From UHGV virus genome UHGV-1882326: 64,000 nt of DNA; one strand, 5' to 3'. The position numbers and the translations under genes are program-made. Of the stretch, positions 3,392 to 30,221 are shown piece by piece. The notes beneath the pieces were generated by a model. The model was not told the origin of the DNA, did no database searches, and worked only from the letters and a program-made list of their open reading frames with translations. The stretch comes from a virus. Each line of letters opens with the position of its first letter. Position 1 is the stretch's first letter.

Positions 3392-4027
3392 ATGAAAGTT
3401 GTAACAAGAGAATATGAAGTATATAGTTTTGAGGAATTGGATGTAGAAGCAAAAGAAAGGGTTAAAAGTTGGTATCTTGATGATGAAATAAGAGTAGATA
3501 TGCTAACAGAAACATATGAAGAAAATTTAAGACTTGCGTTTCCTAACAGTGATTTAAAAGTACAATGGTCTTTATCAAGTTGCCAAGGAGATGGAGTTAA
3601 TATTTTTGGAACACTTAATTTAGAAGATGCTTTTAAACTTCCAGAAAGTAATTTTTATGATTTTTTGGATGAATATAAAGGATATTTTACAGAAAAAGAA
3701 AAGAGGACTATTAATTTTTATAATAGTTTATGCGGTAATGATATTACTTTACCAATAAATAGATGTTATACTTATTGCAATGTATCACAAGTTGAAATTG
3801 CATATAATATGGTTAACATATTAAAAAATGAAAATATTAGAAATATTAATATACGTGTTATAGATAAGTTAGAAAAATATATCGTTGATATGATTACAGA
3901 TATTTGTAAAAAAATGGAAAATATGGGATATGATTATCTGTATAATATTGAAAACGATGATTTAAAAGAAATTTGTGATTGTAATAATTGGTGCTTTTTA
4001 AAAGATGGCACATTTTTTACAGAATAA
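3392..4027 (+). CDS. hypothetical acidic protein (211 aa)
   Basis: Good RBS. Acidic, Cys-containing C-terminus. No confident family assignment. Confidence 0.4.
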   Translation: MKVVTREYEVYSFEELDVEAKERVKSWYLDDEIRVDMLTETYEENLRLAFPNSDLKVQWSLSSCQGDGVNIFGTLNLEDAFKLPESNFYDFLDEYKGYFTEKEKRTINFYNSLCGNDITLPINRCYTYCNVSQVEIAYNMVNILKNENIRNINIRVIDKLEKYIVDMITDICKKMENMGYDYLYNIENDDLKEICDCNNWCFLKDGTFFTE

Positions 4028-4058
4028 AGCATAAAACAAAAAGGAGAATAAAAAAACA

Positions 4059-4307
4059 ATGGCAGTATTAAAAAATGATGAACTGGAAACATTACAGAAA
4101 ATAAATAACATCTTGTATTTAACAAACTATGAACATGCTGTATTTTACGAAAGTTTAACAGAAGAACAAAAAACAGATATTGCAAAGTTTACCGGACTTA
4201 TAGGCAAACTGGAAAATGACAGAGATATACAAAGAACAAGAACAAAATTAGCAAATAGAGAAAAGCGAAAAATCAATAAAGATTATGGAAGAAGAAAGCA
4301 GGCGTAA
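4059..4307 (+). CDS. hypothetical protein (82 aa), basic C-terminus
   Basis: RBS AAAGGAGAATAAAAAAACAATG. Confidence 0.35.
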   Translation: MAVLKNDELETLQKINNILYLTNYEHAVFYESLTEEQKTDIAKFTGLIGKLENDRDIQRTRTKLANREKRKINKDYGRRKQA

Positions 4308-4395
4308 CGCTTGCTTTTCTTTTTGATTTAGTACAAGCTAAAATAATAGTGTTTATGCTTTAGGTGATAAATGTATCATGTAATGTGTTAGAATT

Positions 4396-4505
4396 GCTTG
4401 TAGTGGCTTGTAGTGCGTTGTAGCTGTATTCCAGATCGGGTTTATCTGATTATTTAGTTAAGTTATCTGGTTTATCTGTATCTAGTTATCCGGTTATAGT
4501 TTATT
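4396..4505. repeat. iteron-like direct repeat cluster: 3 x GCTTGTAGTG then 4 x GTTATCYG(G)TT
   Basis: 4396-4426 GCTTGTAGTG GCTTGTAGTG CGTTGTAGCTG. 4438-4500 GTTTATCTGATTA / GTTATCTGGTTT / TATCTGTATCTA / GTTATCCGGTTATAG. The same GTTATCCGGTTATAG GTTATCTGGTTTAC motif recurs at about 6377-6410. Confidence 0.5.
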
Positions 4506-4546
4506 TATAATCATAATAAAAATCATTACATTTTTTAAAACGACTA

Positions 4547-4668
4547 TTGACAAAATATATAAAAAGTATTATAATTAAGATAGTTAAAAAAGAATAGTTG
4601 TGGTGAAGAGTCCTAGCCCAGATATAGGAAAAACATGGAAGATACAATTTTTTAAATGTCAGAATATT
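4547..4668 (+). ncRNA. promoter plus roughly 90-nt non-coding module A, paralogous to 5722-5800; candidate small RNA
   Basis: TTGACA (4547-4552), 17-bp spacer, TATAAT (4570-4575). Downstream segment ...TCCTAGCCCAGATATAGG...TACAATTTTTTAAATGTCAG aligns with the segment following promoter P5. No ORF. Confidence 0.3.
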
Positions 4669-4715
4669 TAAAGGAAATTATAGAAAAGTAATATAATTTA
4701 GTTTTAAAATGATGC

Positions 4716-4752
4716 TTGACTTATCGGGGAAAAGTGGTATAATTAAACCATG
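4716..4752 (+). promoter_or_regulatory. promoter P4 for ardC (TTGACT-16-TATAAT-TAAACCATG)
   Basis: consensus hexamers, TG-extended, conserved AAACCAT block. Confidence 0.55.
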
Positions 4753-4792
4753 TTATTAATAAACCAATTACAGAACAAAGGAGAATAAAATC

Positions 4793-5626
4793 ATGGCAAA
4801 AAATGTATACGAAATGGTAACAGATAGGATTATTGAAGAATTAGAAAAAGGCGTTATTCCATGGAAGAAACCATGGAAAAGCATTTCTAATGGTGCGTAT
4901 AACAGAGTAAGTAAAAAACCTTACAGCTTACTTAATCAGCTTATGTTAAAGCATGAAGGGGAATATGCTACATTTAAACAATGGCAGGAAATGGGCGGAA
5001 AGATTAAAAAAGGAGCAAAGTCTGAATTTGTAGTATTCTGGAAAATGTTAGCAGTTGAAGAAGAAAAAGATGGTGCTACTATTACAAAGACAATTCCAAT
5101 GTTAAAATATTACAATGTTTTTCATATTTCACAGGTTGAAGGAGTTGAACCACTGGAAACTGTAGAAGCTACTCATAATGAGCCAATAGAAAAAGCTGAA
5201 AAACTGAAAAATGGTTACAGTATTCGTGAAAATATTCAGATTATAGAAGAAGTTGGAAACAAGGCTTTTTATAGTCCTAGTGGGGATTATATTTGTATTC
5301 CGTGTAAAGAACAATTTGAAAAGATTAATAAATACTATAGCACAGCTTTTCATGAAATGATACATAGCACAGGACATAAGAAAAGACTTGATAGATTAGT
5401 CAATGCAAAGTTTGGAAGCGAAAAATACAGCAAAGAAGAATTAGTTGCTGAAATAGGTTCTGCAATGATATTGAATGAATTAGGAATTGAAACACCAGAT
5501 ACATTTGAAAACTCTACAGCTTATATACAGAGTTGGTTACAGGTTTTAAAGAATGATAACAAGTTTATTGTTAGTGCTTCTGGAAAAGCGGAAAAAGCAG
5601 TAAAATATATCATGGGAATTGAATAA
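4793..5626 (+). CDS. ardC: anti-restriction protein ArdC-like (N-terminal ssDNA-binding DUF1738-like domain plus C-terminal HExxH metalloprotease-like domain)
   Basis: N-terminus ...RIIEELEKGVIPWKKPW... typical of ArdC/COG4227. C-terminal FHEMIHSTGH zincin HExxH motif. Confidence 0.65.
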   Translation: MAKNVYEMVTDRIIEELEKGVIPWKKPWKSISNGAYNRVSKKPYSLLNQLMLKHEGEYATFKQWQEMGGKIKKGAKSEFVVFWKMLAVEEEKDGATITKTIPMLKYYNVFHISQVEGVEPLETVEATHNEPIEKAEKLKNGYSIRENIQIIEEVGNKAFYSPSGDYICIPCKEQFEKINKYYSTAFHEMIHSTGHKKRLDRLVNAKFGSEKYSKEELVAEIGSAMILNELGIETPDTFENSTAYIQSWLQVLKNDNKFIVSASGKAEKAVKYIMGIE

Positions 5627-5636
5627 TGAGCAGGAT

Positions 5637-5668
5637 AAAAGGACTTGAAAAAGTCCTTTTATTTTTTT
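5637..5668 (+). terminator. rho-independent terminator after ardC
   Basis: AAAAGGACTT-GAAA-AAGTCCTTTT followed by ATTTTTTT. Confidence 0.6.
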
Positions 5669-5688
5669 AAAAAATATTATAAAAGTTA

Positions 5689-5727
5689 TTGACAAAACTA
5701 TAATAATCTGGTATACTTAAACCATAC
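5689..5727 (+). promoter_or_regulatory. promoter P5 (TTGACA-17-TATACT-TAAACCATAC) driving module B
   Basis: same family as P1 to P4. Confidence 0.5.
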
Positions 5728-5805
5728 AAAAGATGTGGGGAATCCTAGCAGAGAAGTAACAGAAGATAGGGCAAACAGCTAACGTACAATTTTTTAATTG
5801 TCTGA
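5728..5805 (+). ncRNA. non-coding module B (paralog of 4582-4668) ending in the perfect palindrome ACAATTTTTTAATTGT
   Basis: shares the TCCTAGC, GATAGG and TACAATTTTTTAATTGTC blocks with module A. No ORF. Confidence 0.3.
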
Positions 5806-5919
5806 TAATTCTAATGTTTTCTTTATAGTATTCTAAACATTTATTTATGATATTCCATTGACTTTTATATATAAATTTGTTATACTTTATATAATTATAA
5901 AAAAGAGGGAAGTGAAAAG

Positions 5920-6066
5920 ATGTATTTTACAAAGGACTACAGACAACTTGATACTGTAGCATTGTATTTATTGTATAATAAGGATAGAAAACAGTATAAG
6001 ACAGTATACAGCTTTAAACAGTGGTTAAACAAGTCTTTATTGACCGGAAGTATTAAAAGGCTGTAA
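5920..6066 (+). CDS. small ORF (48 aa), hypothetical
   Basis: ATG at 5920 with RBS AAAAGAGGGAAG and a promoter TTGACT-17-TATACT upstream. Below the track length cutoff. Followed by a strong terminator. Confidence 0.25.
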   Translation: MYFTKDYRQLDTVALYLLYNKDRKQYKTVYSFKQWLNKSLLTGSIKRL

Positions 6067-6114
6067 CAAGGTTTACAATCGCATATAAAGCCGATATAAA
6101 GCGAATAAAGCATA

Positions 6115-6162
6115 GGCATAAACATAGGAATAAAATTTCTTGTGTTTATGCCTGTTTTTTAT
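6115..6162 (+). terminator. rho-independent terminator
   Basis: GGCATAAACA-loop-TGTTTATGCC followed by TGTTTTTT. Confidence 0.6.
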
Positions 6163-6299
6163 TTCAGAAAAATCAAATACAGAAAAGATCGTAGTTGTCC
6201 AGAATAAACCTATTAGAATAGTATGAATTATTACAAGCTAAAACTAGACGTTTTAACACGTCAATAGTAATTTATTCAAATAAGTATGTAAAACGGCTA

Positions 6300-6760
6300 G
6301 AAACGGCTTGTAGCATGTTATAACATGGTTTAAATAGTTTTTAATCGGTCTGGAAGGTTGAAAACGGGCAGATTATCCGGTTATAGGTTATCTGGTTTAC
6401 TGTATGGGAGTTTTTTAGTAAATGAAAAATACTGTTCAATTTTAAATGACTTAAGGGAAATTTGAACTGAATTGTCAAATTGTTTGAAACAATTCACAAT
6501 CGAACAAGTGTTCGGTGATTATCTTTCAGAATTTTCTGAAATTTCCCAGAGGTAAGAAATTCCCCCAGAATATGCGAGAATAATTTTTCCCCACGAAGTT
6601 AGTGGGGATTTTCGTTTTGGTAATAGCGAGATTTAAAAATTCCCCACGGAGTTTTTTAATTTATTTTTTTATTTTCTTTTATTTTCTTTATTGTTTAAAC
6701 ATTTTCTTTTATAATTTTTATCTTATCTATTGACAAAATCTAATGTTTATGTTATTCTTT
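6300..6760. promoter_or_regulatory. ORF-free repeat/palindrome/AT-rich region; candidate replication origin or regulatory hub
   Basis: GCTTGTAGC at 6310, GTTATCYGGTT iterons at 6377-6410, clustered palindromes at 6440-6540 (GAATTGT..ATTGTTTGAAACAAT..ACAATC, CGAACAAGTGTTCG, TTCAGAATTTTCTGAA), three AATT(T)CCCCAC(G/A)GA repeats with hairpin CCCCACGAAGTTAGTGGGG at 6560-6650, then a 100-bp A/T tract (TTTATTTTCTTTTATTTTCTTTATTG). Confidence 0.4.
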
Positions 6761-6804
6761 TGTATAGAAGTTATTAGTGTATAACGAAAGGAGAAAAATT
6801 TTTT

Positions 6805-7290
6805 ATGAAAATGGAAATAGTTTTGACTGAGAAAGAGATTGAAAATTTACCATATATAAGTAAGGGTGAGATTATTAATAATTGTGATTTTTGCATTGAA
6901 ATCAATAAATTTTTAAGACATATAATACCTATTGAAATTAATAAAGAAAAATATTGTAGGTGTAATGGTTGTAATGAAAATATTAATGTTGCTTTTTATG
7001 TAGAAAAAGAACTTAGCAAGAAAGAATATTTCCGTAGATTTATTGAAGAACCTTTTTATAAAAATATTTGCGATTCTTATGTAAAGATTTTAAACTGTGG
7101 TGTTATATTTATTGATGAAACAAGTTCAGACAAAGAAATAAAGTATTTTATTAAACAAGCTATCAATCCAGAAGTAATGTTTGAAGGAAATTTCAAAGAT
7201 TTTAAATTTAACGAGCAACTTGATAAAACTTTAGACCTTACTGAAACTGTTGAAAAAAGATGGTTCGTATGTGTTGAAAGCATATTATAG
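6805..7290 (+). CDS. hypothetical Cys-rich protein (161 aa)
   Basis: ORF preceded by promoter TTGACA at 6732 and RBS GAAAGGAGAAAAA. Several CxxC pairs. Confidence 0.4.
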   Translation: MKMEIVLTEKEIENLPYISKGEIINNCDFCIEINKFLRHIIPIEINKEKYCRCNGCNENINVAFYVEKELSKKEYFRRFIEEPFYKNICDSYVKILNCGVIFIDETSSDKEIKYFIKQAINPEVMFEGNFKDFKFNEQLDKTLDLTETVEKRWFVCVESIL

Positions 7291-7356: not shown

Positions 7357-7932
7357 GTGGAAACTACCCCCTCTATTGATAGAAAGAAACTAGCAGAAGA
7401 AAACCACAATCTTATCTATTGGTTTTGTTGGAAAAATCATTTAGATATAGAAGAGTGGTATGATATAATTGCTATTGGATATATGAAAGGTATTAATTCT
7501 TATGACGAAACAAAAGGTGTTAAATTAAGCACTTACTTAATTAAAATAATGAAAAATGAATATCTGCTAGTATTAAGAAATAAAAAATATGCTAAGTATA
7601 TTCCAGACGAAGAGATTTTATCTTTGGATTTTGAATATAAATTTGATAAAGATAAAGAGAGTTATAATATTTTAGATTTTATTGTAAATGAAAATTCGTT
7701 TTTTGAAAATGATGTTTGCTTTAAGATTGATATTAAAAAAGTATTTAGTGAATTGAAAATTTCAAAACGAAATTATGAAATTTTCATAATGAGATTACAA
7801 GGTGATACATTAGAGAAAATAGCTTCTGAATTTGGAATAACAAGAGAAAGAGTTAGAATAATATGTAAAGATATAGGGAAAAAATTGAAATGTAAATTAG
7901 ACGAAAATGGAGTTGATTATTTTGAAAACTAA
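7357..7932 (+). CDS. sigma-70 family RNA polymerase sigma factor (small, group-5/ECF-like size)
   Basis: Region-2-like HNLIYWFCWKNHLDIEEWYDIIAIGYMKGINSYDE and region-4 HTH KISKRNYEIFIMRLQGDTLEKIASEFGITRERVRIICKDIGKKL. GTG start with RBS GAAAGGAAT. Confidence 0.6.
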   Translation: METTPSIDRKKLAEENHNLIYWFCWKNHLDIEEWYDIIAIGYMKGINSYDETKGVKLSTYLIKIMKNEYLLVLRNKKYAKYIPDEEILSLDFEYKFDKDKESYNILDFIVNENSFFENDVCFKIDIKKVFSELKISKRNYEIFIMRLQGDTLEKIASEFGITRERVRIICKDIGKKLKCKLDENGVDYFEN

Positions 7933-9034: not shown

Positions 9035-9838
9035 ATGACAAATATTACAAGATTTTTAAATGGTTTAAAGAGTGAACATACAAAGGTAGCATACGAGAAT
9101 GATTTAAAACAGTTCTTTGATTTTACTGGTAAAGACGAAACTGAAATCACTTATGCTGATATTTACGATTACAAAGTGTCTATGAGTGAGTACAGCAGTG
9201 CTACAACAGCACGTAAACTGACAGCTATTAAATCCTATTTCAATTTTCTTTCTGACATGGAATTTATTTCTACTAATCCTTCTGCTAAAATCAAAATTCC
9301 AAAAGTAAAGAATCACGAAAAAGAATATATCCCTATGGACGAAGCAAAGAAATTATTAGGCGTTGCTAAATCCCCTAGAGATAAAGCTATCATTGCATTA
9401 TACCTTTCAACTGGTATGCGAGTTAATGAACTGGTAAATTTAACTGTAGAGCAGTATGAGAAAGATGAAATCGTATTCGTTGCTAAAGGTGACAAGGAAA
9501 GAAAAGTATATCTTAATGATAAATGCAGAGGATATATTGACGAATACTTAAAGGTTCGTAAAGATAGTGGTATTGATAATCTGTTTGTAAGCAATTATGG
9601 CACTCCTATGCGACATGATTTAATTGCTAAAATGTTAAAGAAAAATGCTAAAAAAGCAGGGATAAGTGAGGATATAACTAATCATAGTTTACGCCATTCG
9701 TTCATATCGGCTGTAACTTTAACAAGTGGTGTTGCTGTAGCAAGAGAGGTTGTGGGGCATGTAAATCTTTCTACGACCCAGAGATATGTGCATAATACTG
9801 AGGAAACTATTAAAAATGCCATGGTATCTGTTTTTTAA
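9035..9838 (+). CDS. tyrosine site-specific recombinase, XerC/XerD-like (267 aa)
   Basis: N-terminal core-binding-like FLNGLKSEHTKVAYENDLKQFFDF. Catalytic box HSLRHSFISAV (HxxR) and GHVNLSTTQRYVH (catalytic Tyr). Consensus promoter TTGACA at 8976 and RBS AAAGGAGAATAAAAG. Confidence 0.75.
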   Translation: MTNITRFLNGLKSEHTKVAYENDLKQFFDFTGKDETEITYADIYDYKVSMSEYSSATTARKLTAIKSYFNFLSDMEFISTNPSAKIKIPKVKNHEKEYIPMDEAKKLLGVAKSPRDKAIIALYLSTGMRVNELVNLTVEQYEKDEIVFVAKGDKERKVYLNDKCRGYIDEYLKVRKDSGIDNLFVSNYGTPMRHDLIAKMLKKNAKKAGISEDITNHSLRHSFISAVTLTSGVAVAREVVGHVNLSTTQRYVHNTEETIKNAMVSVF

Positions 9839-10096
9839 GAGGTGAATATGACACGAGATTATGAAAAATTATTAAGAGCAAAAATGCTTTTAGTTAAAGT
9901 ACAAAACATTGTTTTCTTTTTTTCTGATGAGATAATTTCACCAGAAGAAAAGAAAACTTTGATTAAAAGCATAGAAAATTTAATTCAATTTTTGGAACTA
10001 AAATGTGATAAGTTTGGTGAAAGTAGGTGAACCTATATATGGAAGTTTATGAATTGTGGTATGAGTTAGTAAAAAAGAGATAAAGGAGTTTGAATA

Positions 10097-10558
10097 TTGA
10101 AGTCAATAATTTATAAGATGAAACTACTTGTAGCCGTTTTAACCATGTGCTACTTGTTTGTAACTACGTCATTTGCAGACGAAATGACTAAATTGAATCC
10201 GTATGACGAAATTGAAATTTCAGAAGAAGATATAGACCTAATGAGCCGCTTGGTCTACTGTGAATCAAGAGGCGAAAGCACTGAGGGCCAACGTGCAGTA
10301 GCAGAAGTGGTATTAAATCGTTGCCTTAGTAGTGATTTTCCAGATAACGTGAATGATGTTATTTATCAGAGAAAACAGTTTTCTACAGCTAAAATGTTAA
10401 GTAAGACAACGCCTAATGAAGAAAATATTGAAGCTGTAAGATATGTTTTAGAAAATGGAAATACATCACTATCAACAACTGAATATGTTTATTTTTCTAC
10501 GGGTAAATCTAATGGTCACGGGTTTACTAAGTTAGGTAATCATTGGTTTTCTAAGTGA
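10097..10558 (+). CDS. secreted cell-wall hydrolase, SleB-like (spore-cortex-lytic enzyme / Hydrolase_2 domain)
   Basis: N-terminal signal peptide MKLLVAVLTMCYLFVTTSFA. Domain LVYCESRGESTEGQRAVAEVVLNRCLSSDFPDNVNDVIYQRKQFS is characteristic of SleB/CwlJ. TTG start after RBS AAAGGAG. Confidence 0.6.
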   Translation: MKSIIYKMKLLVAVLTMCYLFVTTSFADEMTKLNPYDEIEISEEDIDLMSRLVYCESRGESTEGQRAVAEVVLNRCLSSDFPDNVNDVIYQRKQFSTAKMLSKTTPNEENIEAVRYVLENGNTSLSTTEYVYFSTGKSNGHGFTKLGNHWFSK

Positions 10559-10565
10559 GGACAAT

Positions 10566-10814
10566 ATGGAAAGAATATATTATAGAGTAAAATTTAACAG
10601 TAAAGATGATTTGTTTCAGTTTAATAAGTGGGCTGATAGTTGCAATTATAATATTGATATTAGGTACAACAGTAAAGTTTTAAATGGTAAATCCTTAATT
10701 GGTCTTATGGGAACGGATATTTCTAATCCTATTATTGTTATTTTGTATACCGATAATGCTAATGATTTTGTTGAGAAATTTAGTAATATTATCCTTGACA
10801 AAATTGTAATGTAG
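10566..10814 (+). CDS. hypothetical protein (82 aa)
   Basis: ORF, 8 nt after previous stop. Confidence 0.3.
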   Translation: MERIYYRVKFNSKDDLFQFNKWADSCNYNIDIRYNSKVLNGKSLIGLMGTDISNPIIVILYTDNANDFVEKFSNIILDKIVM

Positions 10815-11131
10815 TGGTATTATTACTATATAAATCAATAGGAAAGGAGAAAATCAATTTGCCAAGAACCAGTAAAAAGCAGAAAGTAATCAATCAAATT
10901 ACAGAAAACTTAAAGCAAAAAGAAAAAGAAATTGCTATCAATGCGGCTATGGGTGGTTATTATTCTGCAATTAAAATTGTACAAGACATGATTACAAAAG
11001 GTAAAACCATTGCAGACCTTAGTACATTCTGTGCCGCTGAGTTGTCAAGAAAAGAAATAGTAGAACAGGGAACTAAAAGTAATTATTTAAAATCAAATAA
11101 AGAAATCAAAGGAGGAAAGATAAGTAACTAA
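10814..11131 (+). CDS. hypothetical protein (105 aa; true start possibly TTG at 10858)
   Basis: ORF; RBS GGAAAGGAGAAAATCAATTG. Confidence 0.3.
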   Translation: MVLLLYKSIGKEKINLPRTSKKQKVINQITENLKQKEKEIAINAAMGGYYSAIKIVQDMITKGKTIADLSTFCAAELSRKEIVEQGTKSNYLKSNKEIKGGKISN

Positions 11132-11576
11132 AAATACAATTAAATGTGAACAAATAGGTTCAAATATACTCAAAATCCAGAGTATTCGTTTGTGCTAACG
11201 TCAAAGCAGTCGGAAACGTCGAGAAGTAACCAGTGCAAGTTGGAACAGCCTTGCTAATTATAGGATAGAACCTTGATGGTGGCGTTTGGACAATGGTAGA
11301 AGTCTACGAAAACCAAGTAGCAAAACATAAAATATTAAGAAAGGAAAAGCTACTTAGATGAAATCTGTATCTAATCAAATATAAGAATTTACAGATATGT
11401 ACCGATGGCTAAGTCGGGAATTAACGACTGTGGAGTGTACAAGAACCTGTGAGTAGCGTATTACTTGTAATCGCCAAAGCATACACAATGAAGCAGTAAC
11501 TATAAATCGTGAGATTATAGCAAATCATCTAGCATATGCACATTTGTATATGTTTTTAGTAGCAGATAACTAAACT

Positions 11577-12587
11577 ATGAAGAATGTAAGACAGACAACT
11601 AACACAGGACTTTTAATTGGTACTCTTTCTGAAAAGAATACAGAGATTAAGCAGATTGAATTAACAAAAGACGATAACACCAAGTTTAAGTGCAATGCTG
11701 TACAGGGAAATATTGTAGTTTCTACTGTAAACGGTGATTTTAATTTAAGAGTTAATTGTCCAGAGTGTAAGAAAGATGGTACAAAGACCAAGCTGTATGC
11801 AAATTTTGAAACACTTCATAACAGCTATGTATCTGCTGTAGAAGCCGCAAAAGATAAATCACTTACACCAAGTATTATTGGTGCTACCGTAGGACTTAGC
11901 TGTTGGGATAGATATAACCAGAATAGTGGTAAAATGGTATCTTCACCACAGATTAGATTAAGAGTTGTAAATAGAGAAAATTCAGATGCAGAATCTCAGA
12001 CAGATTTTTCACTTGAAGGTGTTATTCGTTCTATTAAACCAGAAACGACAATCCCTAAGAGCGATACAGAAGAAGCAGAAGAAACAGGTAGATTACTTGT
12101 AGAATTTATTACAATTAATTTTAACAGCGAAGCAGAGCCTTATAGTTTAATTGTTCCAGAAGATTTAGCAGAAGCATTTGTAAATGGTTGGACTGATGAT
12201 GATGGAACAGTAGTAAACGGTTATGCTGTAGGCGATACTTGCTGTTTAGGTGTTGAACTTGTTATGCGTCATGTAGGTGGCGAAAAGAAGAAATCTGCGG
12301 GATTTGGCAGAAAAGCAAAGGTAGCAGAGGGATTTGATGTATTAGAACTGGTTGTAATTGGTGGTGAGCCTGCTTATACAGATGATACCGAGGACGAAAA
12401 GAAAAAGCCTTTCACACCAGAAGTAATGAAAGAACTTATGAATGAGCGTAAGATGAAACTTGAAAAGATTGAAAAGGACGCAAAAGAAAATAAAGACAGT
12501 GGTTCTTCTCAGAAATCAAGTGGCAAAGGTCTTGGTGGACGTAAGCCAAATGTGAACATGGCTGATATGGGTGACGCTCCTTTCTAA
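11577..12587 (+). CDS. putative ssDNA-binding protein with CPEC zinc motif and SSB-like C-terminal tip (...MADMGDAPF)
   Basis: C-terminal acidic tip ending D-A-P-F resembles the conserved SSB-Ct (DDDIPF). N-terminal GLLIGTLSEKNTEI resembles an OB-fold start. Next to a Sak4-like ATPase. Confidence 0.4.
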   Translation: MKNVRQTTNTGLLIGTLSEKNTEIKQIELTKDDNTKFKCNAVQGNIVVSTVNGDFNLRVNCPECKKDGTKTKLYANFETLHNSYVSAVEAAKDKSLTPSIIGATVGLSCWDRYNQNSGKMVSSPQIRLRVVNRENSDAESQTDFSLEGVIRSIKPETTIPKSDTEEAEETGRLLVEFITINFNSEAEPYSLIVPEDLAEAFVNGWTDDDGTVVNGYAVGDTCCLGVELVMRHVGGEKKKSAGFGRKAKVAEGFDVLELVVIGGEPAYTDDTEDEKKKPFTPEVMKELMNERKMKLEKIEKDAKENKDSGSSQKSSGKGLGGRKPNVNMADMGDAPF

Positions 12588-12747
12588 AAAATAAGTAGTT
12601 ATGAGTTAGTATAAAGTGGTTACAAGCGGTTAGGATAGGTTAGATGATAAATTGGTAGTCTAAAAAATTCAAGCCGCTTGTACTAATTTGTCAAGTAAAA
12701 AAATGACAGGAATAAAACATAATGATTTCATATGGAGGAATTAAATA

Positions 12748-17039: not shown

Positions 17040-17336
17040 ATGATTCATGTAATTGACGGTTTTTATATTTTAGTAGACGCTTATCAGTATATCGCACAGG
17101 AAGATAGTGGTGCAAAATTATCATCTAAAGGTAAAGAATACATCAAATGGAATGTACTTGGTTATTATTCTTCTATTGATAAAGCTGTAGAAAGAATTAT
17201 CACAGAACTGATTAACAGAAGAACAAAAAAGAAAACTTATGAATTGGCTGATTATATTGCTGATTATAAAGCTGAAACGTTAAGATTAAAGAAACTGATT
17301 AAAGATTCAATGAAAGAAGTAAGCAAGGCAAAGTAA
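17040..17336 (+). CDS. hypothetical protein (98 aa)
   Basis: RBS AAAGGAGAATAAAAAATG. Confidence 0.35.
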   Translation: MIHVIDGFYILVDAYQYIAQEDSGAKLSSKGKEYIKWNVLGYYSSIDKAVERIITELINRRTKKKTYELADYIADYKAETLRLKKLIKDSMKEVSKAK

Positions 17337-29546: not shown

Positions 29547-29994
29547 AAATTGGATAATCAAAGTATGGGATAAGCGTAAGGACAATTTAGAGCCAGAAGA
29601 ATATAATTTATCACATGATAAATTTGCAAAACTTATATTTAATGATATACTTACAATAATACCATCACTTATGCAGTCGGAATATAATACTATTTCAGTT
29701 AATTTTTGCAATATAAAAAAAGAAAGGCTTATTATTCAAGTATTTTGTAATATTTACAGAAATAGCAAAAATTCTAAATTTCAAAGAGAACGTTGTAATA
29801 GAAAAGATTATTATTGGCATTTTGATTTATATATTGATAAAAACAACTTCGGTAGTAGTTATCAACAATTAGTTACTGCTAGAAATATTTTAAAAAGTCT
29901 TACTAAAGAAGAAACACATTATTCACAAGATGAAATAAACAAATTAATGGAAAAAGCTAGGGAATTAGATAGAGAGAATATCGAAAAAATGTAG
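29509..29994 (+). CDS. hypothetical protein (start probably internal MLERIKNW)
   Basis: ORF; RBS AAAAGGAGAAAAG. Confidence 0.3.
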   Translation: MQKRRKVMLERIKNWIIKVWDKRKDNLEPEEYNLSHDKFAKLIFNDILTIIPSLMQSEYNTISVNFCNIKKERLIIQVFCNIYRNSKNSKFQRERCNRKDYYWHFDLYIDKNNFGSSYQQLVTARNILKSLTKEETHYSQDEINKLMEKARELDRENIEKM

Positions 29995-30001
29995 ATAACT
30001 C

Positions 30002-30091
30002 TTGACAATTCAACATATAGTATGTTATAATAAAAACGTGCCTAAATCTAGTGGTTTTATTTAAAATCCGATTAGGCACGTTTTAGTTTTA
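30002..30091 (+). promoter_or_regulatory. nrdD promoter plus palindrome/hairpin leader
   Basis: TTGACA (30002-30007), 18-bp spacer containing palindrome ACATATAGTATGT, TATAAT (30026-30031). Then long inverted repeat AACGTGCCTAAATC (30035-30048) / GATTAGGCACGTT (30070-30082) followed by a T-rich run. About 130 nt more of leader before the ATG. Confidence 0.45.
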
Positions 30092-30221
30092 TGGTAACAC
30101 TTAGTACAAGCGTTCCCGGTTCACAAATGATAAAGTTATCGTGTAAGTAGATTAAATAGGAGTTAGCATGGTTGTAATGCTTGATAACCTATTGCAAAAT
30201 AGAAAGTGAGGTCTTTGTAAA

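Follow-up and report, generated by a model that had tools for sequence, protein, structure and literature searches.

In the 64-kb window analysed here, a stretch of the virus genome UHGV-1882326 of about 30% GC with genes on the + strand at 1-33 kb and on the - strand at 38-64 kb, the anti-restriction gene ardC is flanked on both sides by repeat-rich non-coding DNA (positions refer to the window unless another sequence is named). The first-pass annotation had described these flanks, region 1 and region 2, as a candidate origin or partition/regulatory site. We compared them with contigs of related phages, labelled L001-L038, among which L031 is phage PMBT24 and L023 is IMGVR_UViG_3300045988_133818. 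The repeats belong to composite modules next to early promoters, and control of these promoters is the reading that we tentatively put forward. The elements of the modules are as follows.

4324-4504, + strand: module A1, with TACAAGC at 4332-4338, GCTTGTAGTG units at 4396-4425 and iterons GTT(T)ATCYGG at 4438-4500.
4405-4424, + strand: 20-bp core GGCTTGTAGTGCGTTGTAGC of A1, nearly invariant among relatives.
6224-6410, + strand: module A2, a nested inverted repeat followed by iterons ATTATCCGGTTATAGGTTATCTGGTTTAC at 6372-6400.
6232-6238 and 6306-6312, + strand: outer arms of A2, TACAAGC and GCTTGTA.
6243-6254 and 6289-6300, + strand: inner arms of A2, CTAGACGTTTTA and TAAAACGGCTAG.
6469-6540, no strand: palindrome cluster, conserved in nine relatives and with paralogous sites in copy 0 (a further copy of the module, described below).
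6469-6501: nest of AATTGT/ACAATT with the perfect core AATTGTTTGAAACAATT at 6478-6494.
6501-6514: CGAACAAGTGTTCG, a perfect GAAC-N4-GTTC box of LexA type.
6525-6540: palindrome TTCAGAATTTTCTGAA.
6540-6652, + strand: four to five repeats of TTCCCCA(C) type, including two units of about 30 bp, ..AATATGCGAGAATAATTTTTCCCCACG.. and GGTAATAGCGAGATTTAAAAATTCCCCACGG.
6653-6729, + strand: T-rich tract, about 70% T and about 10% GC, directly 5' of promoter P5.
6730-6758, + strand: promoter P5, TTGACA-17-TATTCT, TG-extended, invariant in nine relatives.
12621-12682, + strand: A3, a third hairpin, TACAAGCGG...CCGCTTGTA, with an A1-like interior (TTAGATGATAAAT).

All of the sequences listed in the first-pass annotation were found in the window, at most a few bases away from where it had placed them. 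The tandem 10-bp repeats of region 1 read GCTTGTAGTG GCTTGTAGTG CGTTGTAGCT, i.e. two exact units plus one 7/10 unit (period 10, 2.8 copies and 88% matches by Tandem Repeats Finder), and the direct GTTATCYG(G)TT repeats behind them are four to five imperfect units of GTT(T)ATCYG(G). Both motifs do recur in region 2, with GGCTTGTAG at 6305-6313 and ATTATCCGGTTATAGGTTATCTGGTTTAC at 6372-6400, and the palindromes announced there lie at 6469-6501, 6501-6514 and 6525-6540, followed by the TTCCCCA(C)-type units of 6540-6652, of which an inverted copy gives the hairpin at 6588-6608. As to the GCTTGTA(C/G) motif proposed elsewhere in the window, the inverted pair at 12621-12682 is a genuine hairpin (A3), but TACAAGC at 30105 stands alone, without a partner, at chance level. 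Both GCTTGTAG and GTGGGGAA/TTCCCCAC occur three times in 64 kb and are confined to the ardC-flanking region.

The local alignment of A1 with A2 scored 31, against 14 +/- 2.4 for 1000 shuffles with none reaching 31, and 0 of 1953 random genomic segments reached this score. The two share TACAAGCTAAAA, GGCTTGTAG and TTATCCGGTTATAG, collinear and with equal spacing. Judged from these alignments, the A1 and A2 regions are real related (paralogous) copies of a family-specific cis-module. The triple TTGTAG motif gave three matches in 185,579 species genomes, all in non-Firmicute metagenome-assembled genomes (Betaproteobacteria, Ktedonobacterales and Nannocystis). Since these few matches are at the level of chance and no Firmicute genome carries the motif, the repeats are not repetitive elements of the host but specific to the phage. 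Search of the DNA of 4200-7000 against cultured phages gave no match, and the homology to PMBT24 emerged only after synteny was placed by way of the DnaE protein.

The closest cultured relatives are the Enterocloster phages PMBT24 and CB457P/CB473P, of which the DnaE is 47% identical and the gene order the same. PMBT24 is a siphovirus of 99,962 bp, pac-type and circularly permuted, that was isolated as virulent and is predicted to be strictly lytic (PMC11035940). The assemblies of IMG/VR, ENA and Logan, some of them from the human gut, yielded many closer relatives as contigs of about 100 kb. In these relatives a fuller module, copy 0, lies directly 5' of the site homologous to window position 1 (at about 7060-7850 in L023). 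Its elements keep the order seen in the window: several 10-11-bp repeats GGCTTGTAT/GCGTTGTAG and about six ATCCGGTTTA iterons, then GAAC-N4-GTTY boxes (two to three in L023) on either side of the palindrome ATTGT...ACAAT. After these come AAATTTCCCCAGAG and TTTTTCCCCACGGA, then a T-tract, and lastly a promoter and a gene. Taking copy 0 together with A1, A2 and A3, each genome therefore carries at least two full copies, the partial copy A1 and the lone hairpin A3. Other long non-coding stretches of L023 span 1808-2924 and 3586-5318.

Syntenic homologues in PMBT24 and CB457P2 hold a B module (the leader type described below) with ...AAACATGGAAGGTACAATTTTTTAATTATCAGATAATT..., a terminator, the A2 hairpin, the palindrome TCAGAAAATTCTGA and two AATGGCGATA...AAAATTYCC units, and the TTCCCCA(C)-repeat blocks also have homologues in both. 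In PMBT24, where the homologues lie at about 87-88 kb and 93.5-94.3 kb, a triple GATTGTAGCATGGTTGTAGTGCGTTGTAGCC was found in another non-coding stretch, and TTGTAGTGCGTTGTAGC of the A1 core is present as well. Of eight A1 homologues from close relatives, seven have the 20-mer GGCTTGTAGTGCGTTGTAGC unchanged, and it recurs in A2 of some relatives. The non-coding stretch of L033-L035 shares 83-86% identity with the window, as compared with 63-68% for the adjoining protein ORF161.

Put together from these copies, the full module opens at its 5' side with a nested inverted repeat that carries the tandem site GGCTTGTAGTGCGTTGTAGC. Iterons (TATCYGGTTTA) come next, and after them lie two to three short palindromes, two to five units containing TTCCCCA(C) and a T-rich tract, with a near-consensus sigma-A promoter at the 3' end. 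The promoter stands at the end of every full copy in the same orientation (P5 in the window; TTGACT...TATAGT in L023 copy 0 and a promoter in CB457P2, the latter two by eye). On both sides of ardC this arrangement is joined by a shorter module, in which a promoter, 67-69 nt, an invariant 26-nt core and a second promoter follow each other. The features between the terminators of this region are listed below.

4294-4318, + strand: intrinsic terminator of the upstream 82-aa gene, at the left edge of region 1; conserved in relatives.
4547-4575, + strand: promoter P1, TTGACA-17-TATAAT, 12/12; invariant in relatives.
4583-4715, + strand: non-coding leader B1, with GTGGTGAA at 4600-4607 (inverted TTCNCCAC) and the invariant core TACAATTTTTTAAATGTCAGAATATT at 4643-4668.
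4716-4743, + strand: promoter P2, TTGACT-16-TATAAT, TG-extended; predicted from its consensus match to drive ardC.
4793-5626, + strand: ardC, with ArdC-N domain and zincin metallopeptidase; an exchangeable early cassette.
5637-5668, + strand: terminator-like hairpin and T-run after ardC, read from the sequence; conserved in relatives.
5689-5717, + strand: promoter P3, TTGACA-17-TATACT.
5725-5857, + strand: leader B2, with GTGGGGAA at 5735-5742 and the core TACAATTTTTTAATTGTCTGATAATT at 5785-5810.
5858-5886, + strand: promoter P4, 169 bp after P3.
5920-6066, + strand: 48-aa open reading frame (ORF), in which the differences among relatives are mostly synonymous by eye.
6112-6155, + strand: strong intrinsic terminator with a 19-bp stem and a compensatory change in L035.

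The identity of ardC is supported by Pfam (1.5e-28 and 4.6e-40) and by the PHROG anti-restriction family (1.7e-75). The two leaders, overlooked by the first-pass annotation, are paralogous (4518-4668 against 5649-5810, E = 4.6e-10), and the spacing of P1-P2 equals that of P3-P4 (169 bp). The 26-nt core TACAATTTTTTAAWTRTCWGAWWATT starts 67-69 nt after the upstream -10 box in 12/12 homologues of three diverged types, with 72-73 or 53 nt left to the next -35 box, and contains a palindrome of the AATTRTCNGATAATT type. In addition, GTGGNGAA, the inverted TTCNCCAC motif, follows the -10 box at a distance of 17-32 nt in P1, P3 and their homologues, and the positions of both elements are, as far as spacing can tell, operator-like. 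RNAalifold yielded no consensus structure for the B leader, its conservation being at the sequence level; the leader was thus rejected as a small RNA, single-sequence folds being also no better than shuffles. The sole small ORF of B1 (6 aa, by eye) is missing from B2. The 48-aa ORF is probably a real small gene; a comparable 44-aa ORF is found in CB457P2 and absent in PMBT24. No small conserved ORF was recognised in 6160-6800, where a 27-aa frame at 6472-6555 seems early-stopped in L018 (by eye).

Its sequence context places the composite module in the early transcription units of a phage of the PMBT24 type, about 100 kb in size. Of the functions suggested in the first-pass annotation, the regulatory one fits best, given that the modules lie 5' of near-consensus sigma-A promoters in the same orientation, while partition is weak. 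Each full copy stands just 5' of a strong early promoter, and a control region and cassette boundary is therefore likelier than an origin. The motifs GTGGGGAA/TTCCCCAC and GCTTGTAG were also found in copy 0 and in non-coding regions of PMBT24 and CB457P2, so that the same motifs recur in several promoter regions, and the palindromes look to be of the type bound by dimeric regulators. We therefore tentatively propose, with a confidence a little short of even, that the modules are multi-site control modules of early promoters, which also act as recombination-prone boundaries of cassettes. The motifs would be binding sites of sequence-specific DNA-binding proteins, encoded by the phage or possibly host LexA, and these proteins would set the strength and timing of early promoters, notably P5 of the phage sigma-factor operon; the T-tract may serve as an UP-like or curved promoter element. 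From its position P5 is predicted to drive ORF 6805-7290 and the sigma-factor gene at 7357-7932.

Several observations weigh against this proposal. P1-P5 are known as consensus matches alone and the binding proteins are postulated, with no helix-turn-helix or repressor domain in the scanned ORFs. For simple operator control, a series of ordered conserved sites spread over 450-600 bp 5' of a bacterial-type promoter is unusually long. The one-sided changes in the A2 stem, tallied from the pair tables, are asymmetric on the + strand (22 G.U against 3 A.C cells), which hints at a single-stranded role beyond a duplex operator. Boxes of GAAC-N4-GTTY are not enriched across the whole window, and the LexA-type box was not seen at the corresponding place of PMBT24. 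Finally, tandem 10-bp repeats, iterons, an A/T tract and adjoining promoters are also the known anatomy of phage origins. ORF161 and the ORF 3' of copy 0 were considered as paralogous autoregulators and rejected for lack of similarity; the homologues of ORF161 carry neither a name nor a Pfam domain.

The LexA operator of Firmicutes (Cheo box) has the consensus GAAC-N4-GTTC (PMC4234289). CGAACAAGTGTTCG is the sole perfect match within the window, but it would differ from a standard LexA operator in lying about 215 bp 5' of P5 and not overlapping the promoter. LexA-type boxes in copy 0 of L021, L023 and L024 read GAACAAGCGTTC or GAACAAATGTTT, plus GAACAGACGTTT. As a separate observation, CGAACAAGTGTTCG hints that the SOS state of the host might influence the promoter of the sigma-factor operon. 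A resemblance to the CodY box at 6530-6544 was not significant and was dropped.

The proposed role as cassette boundary is based on gain and loss of genes among relatives. ardC is absent in L013 and L038, and the junction left in L013 is a B1/B2 hybrid with the crossover in the core at TACAATTTTTTAA. An extra radC (Pfam 3.4e-39) is carried by L001, L002, L006 and L033, and its insertion point is the repeated -10/+1 sequence TATAMTTAAACCAT, that of P2. Parts of the promoters being repeated, recombination between them thus adds or removes ardC and radC among relatives. In the lineage L001/L002/L021/L025, from two metagenomes, 5510-7273 is missing as a block and copy 0 is kept. This loss takes away the 3' end of ardC, B2, the small ORF, A2, the palindromes, the T-tract, P5 and most of ORF161, and unlike the ardC and radC changes the replacement has no junction in the repeated cassettes. 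In L006 (4001-4838) ardC seems interrupted, with ORFs of 116 and 140 aa in place of one of 277, and in L001/L002 it is truncated by the 5510-7273 replacement. The absence, interruption and truncation of ardC in these relatives suggest that it is dispensable.

The junction of the ardC loss falls exactly in the invariant core, which holds an imperfect palindrome, and one might regard the modules as sites for the conserved XerD/XerA-like recombinase encoded at 9035-9838, forming an integron-like platform that captures anti-defence cassettes. We consider this very unlikely. The core is the longest stretch of identity between B1 and B2, and short-homology recombination therefore predicts the same junction; the radC junction is at another repeat, in the -10/+1 region; and direct repeats of an active site would destabilise the interval. 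Known sites of Xer, Cre and FLP have a layout of 11-13 / 6-8 / 11-13, which the arms and spacer of the core do not fit. The recombinase itself retains the catalytic residues, for which reason a dead recombinase of the MrpR kind was rejected. An integron attC-like reading of the A hairpins was also rejected, because the cassette junctions are in the promoter modules and not in the A hairpins.

A replication origin of iteron type, or one activated by transcription, is the serious rival, although on balance we hold it to be unlikely. In such an origin the iterons would bind an initiator, the T-rich tract would unwind, and strong or tandem promoters would activate or prime replication in the style of lambda or T7; the A hairpins could be single-strand priming signals, and the copies alternative or cooperating origins as with P4 ori/crr, SPP1 oriL/oriR and T4. 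The region does offer 10-bp-phased tandem repeats with an inverted copy (GCTTGTAGTG x2.8 at period 10), iterons (TATCYGG units at irregular intervals, four to five here and as many as six in L023 copy 0), palindromes and a tract that ranks among the least stable in the window. It is strongly conserved across a family in which DnaE is 47% identical, its motif is phage-specific, its hairpins fold better than shuffles as single-stranded DNA (z = -3.4 to -3.6), and the wobble asymmetry favours the + strand. Helical-phase direct repeats, inverted repeats, an A/T tract and nearby transcription are shared with lambda ori, P4 ori plus crr and SPP1 oriL/oriR, and P4 and SPP1 likewise have two separated iteron clusters per genome. 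The T7 primary origin and T4 oriF/oriG have promoters beside an A/T-rich unwinding region, with the tandem promoters phi1.1A/1.1B, and in several Firmicute siphophages the most repeat-rich non-coding region proved to be ori.

Against an origin, however, about 13 kb of DNA holds no fewer than three to four copies of the module, each in the orientation of the promoters, and copy 2, the module of region 2, is wholly missing in the natural lineage from two samples mentioned above. The iterons of A1 decay among close relatives from about five down to about two, being reduced in L006 and L035. The A/T tract, which had been taken for a DNA-unwinding element, is present, and 6655-6754 ranks fourth among the least stable 100-bp segments of the 64 kb, but it looks like other promoter tracts: all of the least stable tracts (496-595, 1540-1639, 2874-2973, 4495-4594, 5805-5904 and 6655-6754) lie upstream of strong early promoters. 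No initiator-like gene was recognised beside the modules, domain scans of the neighbouring ORFs showing no Rep, DnaA, DnaD or O-like domain, and the ORFs 3' of copy 0 and copy 2 are unrelated to each other; ORF 11577-12587 gave nothing against PDB. In the replication block a 98-aa 'replication initiation' PHROG match at 17040-17336 is weak, and nothing stronger was found. The block does not adjoin the region but lies 6 kb away from it, and the region contains no DnaA boxes. Iteron origins of the lambda, P4 or SPP1 kind differ in having an adjoining initiator gene, whereas here the copies are three to four, one of them dispensable in nature, with an unstable iteron number; the origins of T7 and T4 differ in the A/T tract, which here is 5' of the promoter and not 3' of the transcription start. 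The origin-specific part of the first-pass annotation was therefore not supported.

The cumulative GC skew that had been proposed as a check did not speak for an origin either. The complete PMBT24 genome has no inflection at the module homologues, the skew turning only at about 9.5 and 52 kb, at transcription switches, and being uniform over 87-99 kb; in the window it is uniform over 1-24 kb. This argument is weak, since the skew in phages largely follows transcription. At the cumulative minimum of PMBT24, where early and late transcription diverge, a gene annotated as 'RNA-dependent RNA polymerase' (9612-12107) heads the late operon, and its product may be a single-subunit RNA polymerase similar to YonO of SPbeta.

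The two functions could also be united, in that the modules would be multi-copy transcription-coupled origins (iterons, a + strand priming hairpin, T-rich unwinding and tandem promoters) whose repeated promoter and leader parts also drive the exchange of ardC and radC. To this combined proposal we give a small chance. If true, one and the same physical unit of these phages would fire replication, control early promoters and shuffle cassettes.

The A hairpins may alternatively be the functional part, as single-stranded elements of the + strand (sites of RNA processing or stability in transcripts that read through or start from a weak promoter, or signals in single-stranded DNA) to which the nearby repeats are secondary. 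The inner stem of A2 is 96% paired over 14 homologous sequences (the tally of the pair tables gives 96.9% of cells for A2) and shows two compensatory pairs, one running through G-C / G-U / A-U and a second that covaries, and the excess of G.U over A.C points in the same direction. Folded as single-stranded DNA, A2 and A3 exceed shuffles (z = -3.6 and -3.4; -3.0 for the palindrome cluster), and A3, which has ORF 11577-12587 on one side and the Sak4-like/AAA_24 gene on the other, belongs to a polycistronic stretch and lacks its own promoter. The covariation is marginal, however, as 11-16 of 500 shuffles match the observed signal in a control that ignores phylogeny, and the consensus energy is just -5.5 kcal/mol. 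The fold of A1 is no better than shuffles (z = -1.1), and several relatives have its basal stem disrupted. Strong terminators precede A1 and A2, a good upstream promoter was not found in the scan, no Rfam family matches, and palindromic protein sites may gain symmetric changes as well. Because the outer stem of A2 is lost in the PMBT24 clade and the left arm of A1 is mutated in several relatives, the hairpins as single-strand elements are plausible but unproven, and that they are the primary function appears improbable.

Two further elements were noted beside the A2 hairpin. The sequence AGTTGTCCAGAATAAACCTATT at 6192-6215 is almost invariant in nine relatives and, read as TTGTCC-18-TAGTAT, could act as a weak promoter, with transcription beginning at the hairpin. 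At 6083-6134, tandem ATATAAAGCCG / ATAAAGC repeats reach the 5' arm of the terminator and are strongly conserved in relatives, partly in PMBT24.

Clustered palindromes of 14-17 bp and a DUF262 (ParB/Srx-fold) protein encoded 2 kb upstream might suggest centromere-like partition sites, but a ParA/ParB pair was not found and no parS occurs in the window even with two mismatches, and we regard this function as highly improbable. The relatives have a single canonical Firmicute parS, TGTT(T/C)CACGTGAAACA, which is elsewhere, at the late/early boundary. This parS, TGTTTCACGTGAAACA or TGTTCCACGTGAAACA, lies at 3628-3643 in L023, 1724-1739 in L024 and 25590-25605 in L015, upstream of the homologue of the window start. 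In the three relatives it edges a C/T-rich 'cccac' low-complexity stretch and in PMBT24 it adjoins the pac site. Its conservation suggests that a phage predicted to be lytic might recruit ParB/Spo0J of the host. The modules themselves were rejected as a pac site, the pac of PMBT24 mapping to the record start, and as a T5-like injection-stop signal, because PMBT24 is pac-type and circularly permuted (PMC11035940).

As control modules and cassette boundaries, the modules may be compared with two known systems. The promoter-early stem-loop (PeSL) cassettes of T4-type phages combine strong sigma-70-like early promoters with terminator stem-loops (PMC2839356, PMC4122927). Both are repeated small promoter/terminator cassettes among small non-essential genes, the present sequence combining, in a space of 2.5 kb, three terminator hairpins with five promoters on the + strand that score 10-12 of 12 (13 such promoters in 1-19 kb). 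In both, insertions, deletions and replacements between close relatives break in the repeated cassettes, here for ardC and radC (PMC2839356). The modules differ from PeSLs in the unrelated host and phage lineage, and in having a tandem-promoter unit of about 170 bp with a 26-nt core, to which some promoters add an iteron/palindrome array of 450-600 bp. The SPbeta repeated element (SPBRE), to which the master repressor MrpR binds, consists of one 15-bp motif (PMC10516654). By its description it resembles the modules as a short conserved element in promoter regions of about ten early/regulatory operons of a large Firmicute phage, and SPbeta shares the DnaE-type (YorL) polymerase with the phage of the window. 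SPbeta is however temperate and MrpR has a catalytically dead tyrosine-recombinase fold, whereas several motif types form an ordered array here.

PMBT24-like phages (proposed 'Kielviridae') are recently described phages of about 100 kb from human-gut Clostridia, and ordered cis-elements conserved in this family are now defined: the 20-mer GGCTTGTAGTGCGTTGTAGC, the ~30-mer GGTAATAGCGAGATTTAAAAATTCCCCACGG, the 26-nt core TACAATTTTTTAAWTRTCWGAWWATT and the LexA-type box. They are directly usable as probes in pull-downs, electrophoretic mobility shift assays, reporter fusions and origin mapping in cultured members. The swapping of anti-restriction genes in and out of the early region by way of repeated promoter modules parallels the PeSLs of T4 and the anti-defence leading regions of plasmids.

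The genes identified on the + strand encode, besides ArdC, the DUF262 protein, the sigma factor (7357-7932), the XerD/XerA-like recombinase (9035-9838), a SleB-like hydrolase, a Sak4-like annealase, a DnaB-like helicase, Gam, primase, RecJ, DnaE, a RecD2-like helicase and NrdD. The nrdD gene is preceded, at 30002-30221, by a consensus promoter (TTGACA...TATAAT), a terminator-like hairpin ACGTGCCTAA...TTAGGCACGTTTT and a 130-nt leader; this leader looks attenuator- or riboswitch-like, and three near-consensus DnaA boxes lie at 29859-29998, just 5' of the nrdD promoter.

A permissive Rfam scan of 4200-7000 gave nothing below E = 0.38, and at gathering scores the only structured RNA was RAGATH-18, outside the region. 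It is full-length, at 11427-11499 within the non-coding stretch 11132-11576 (73.5 bits, E = 7e-13). The family RAGATH-18 consists of guide RNAs of IS607 TnpB nucleases (PMC11061315). No TnpB ORF is present 5' of it in the window, the adjacent ORFs being of 82 and 105 aa without TnpB domains, and the RNA may be a phage-borne guide RNA that stands alone or survives as a relic.

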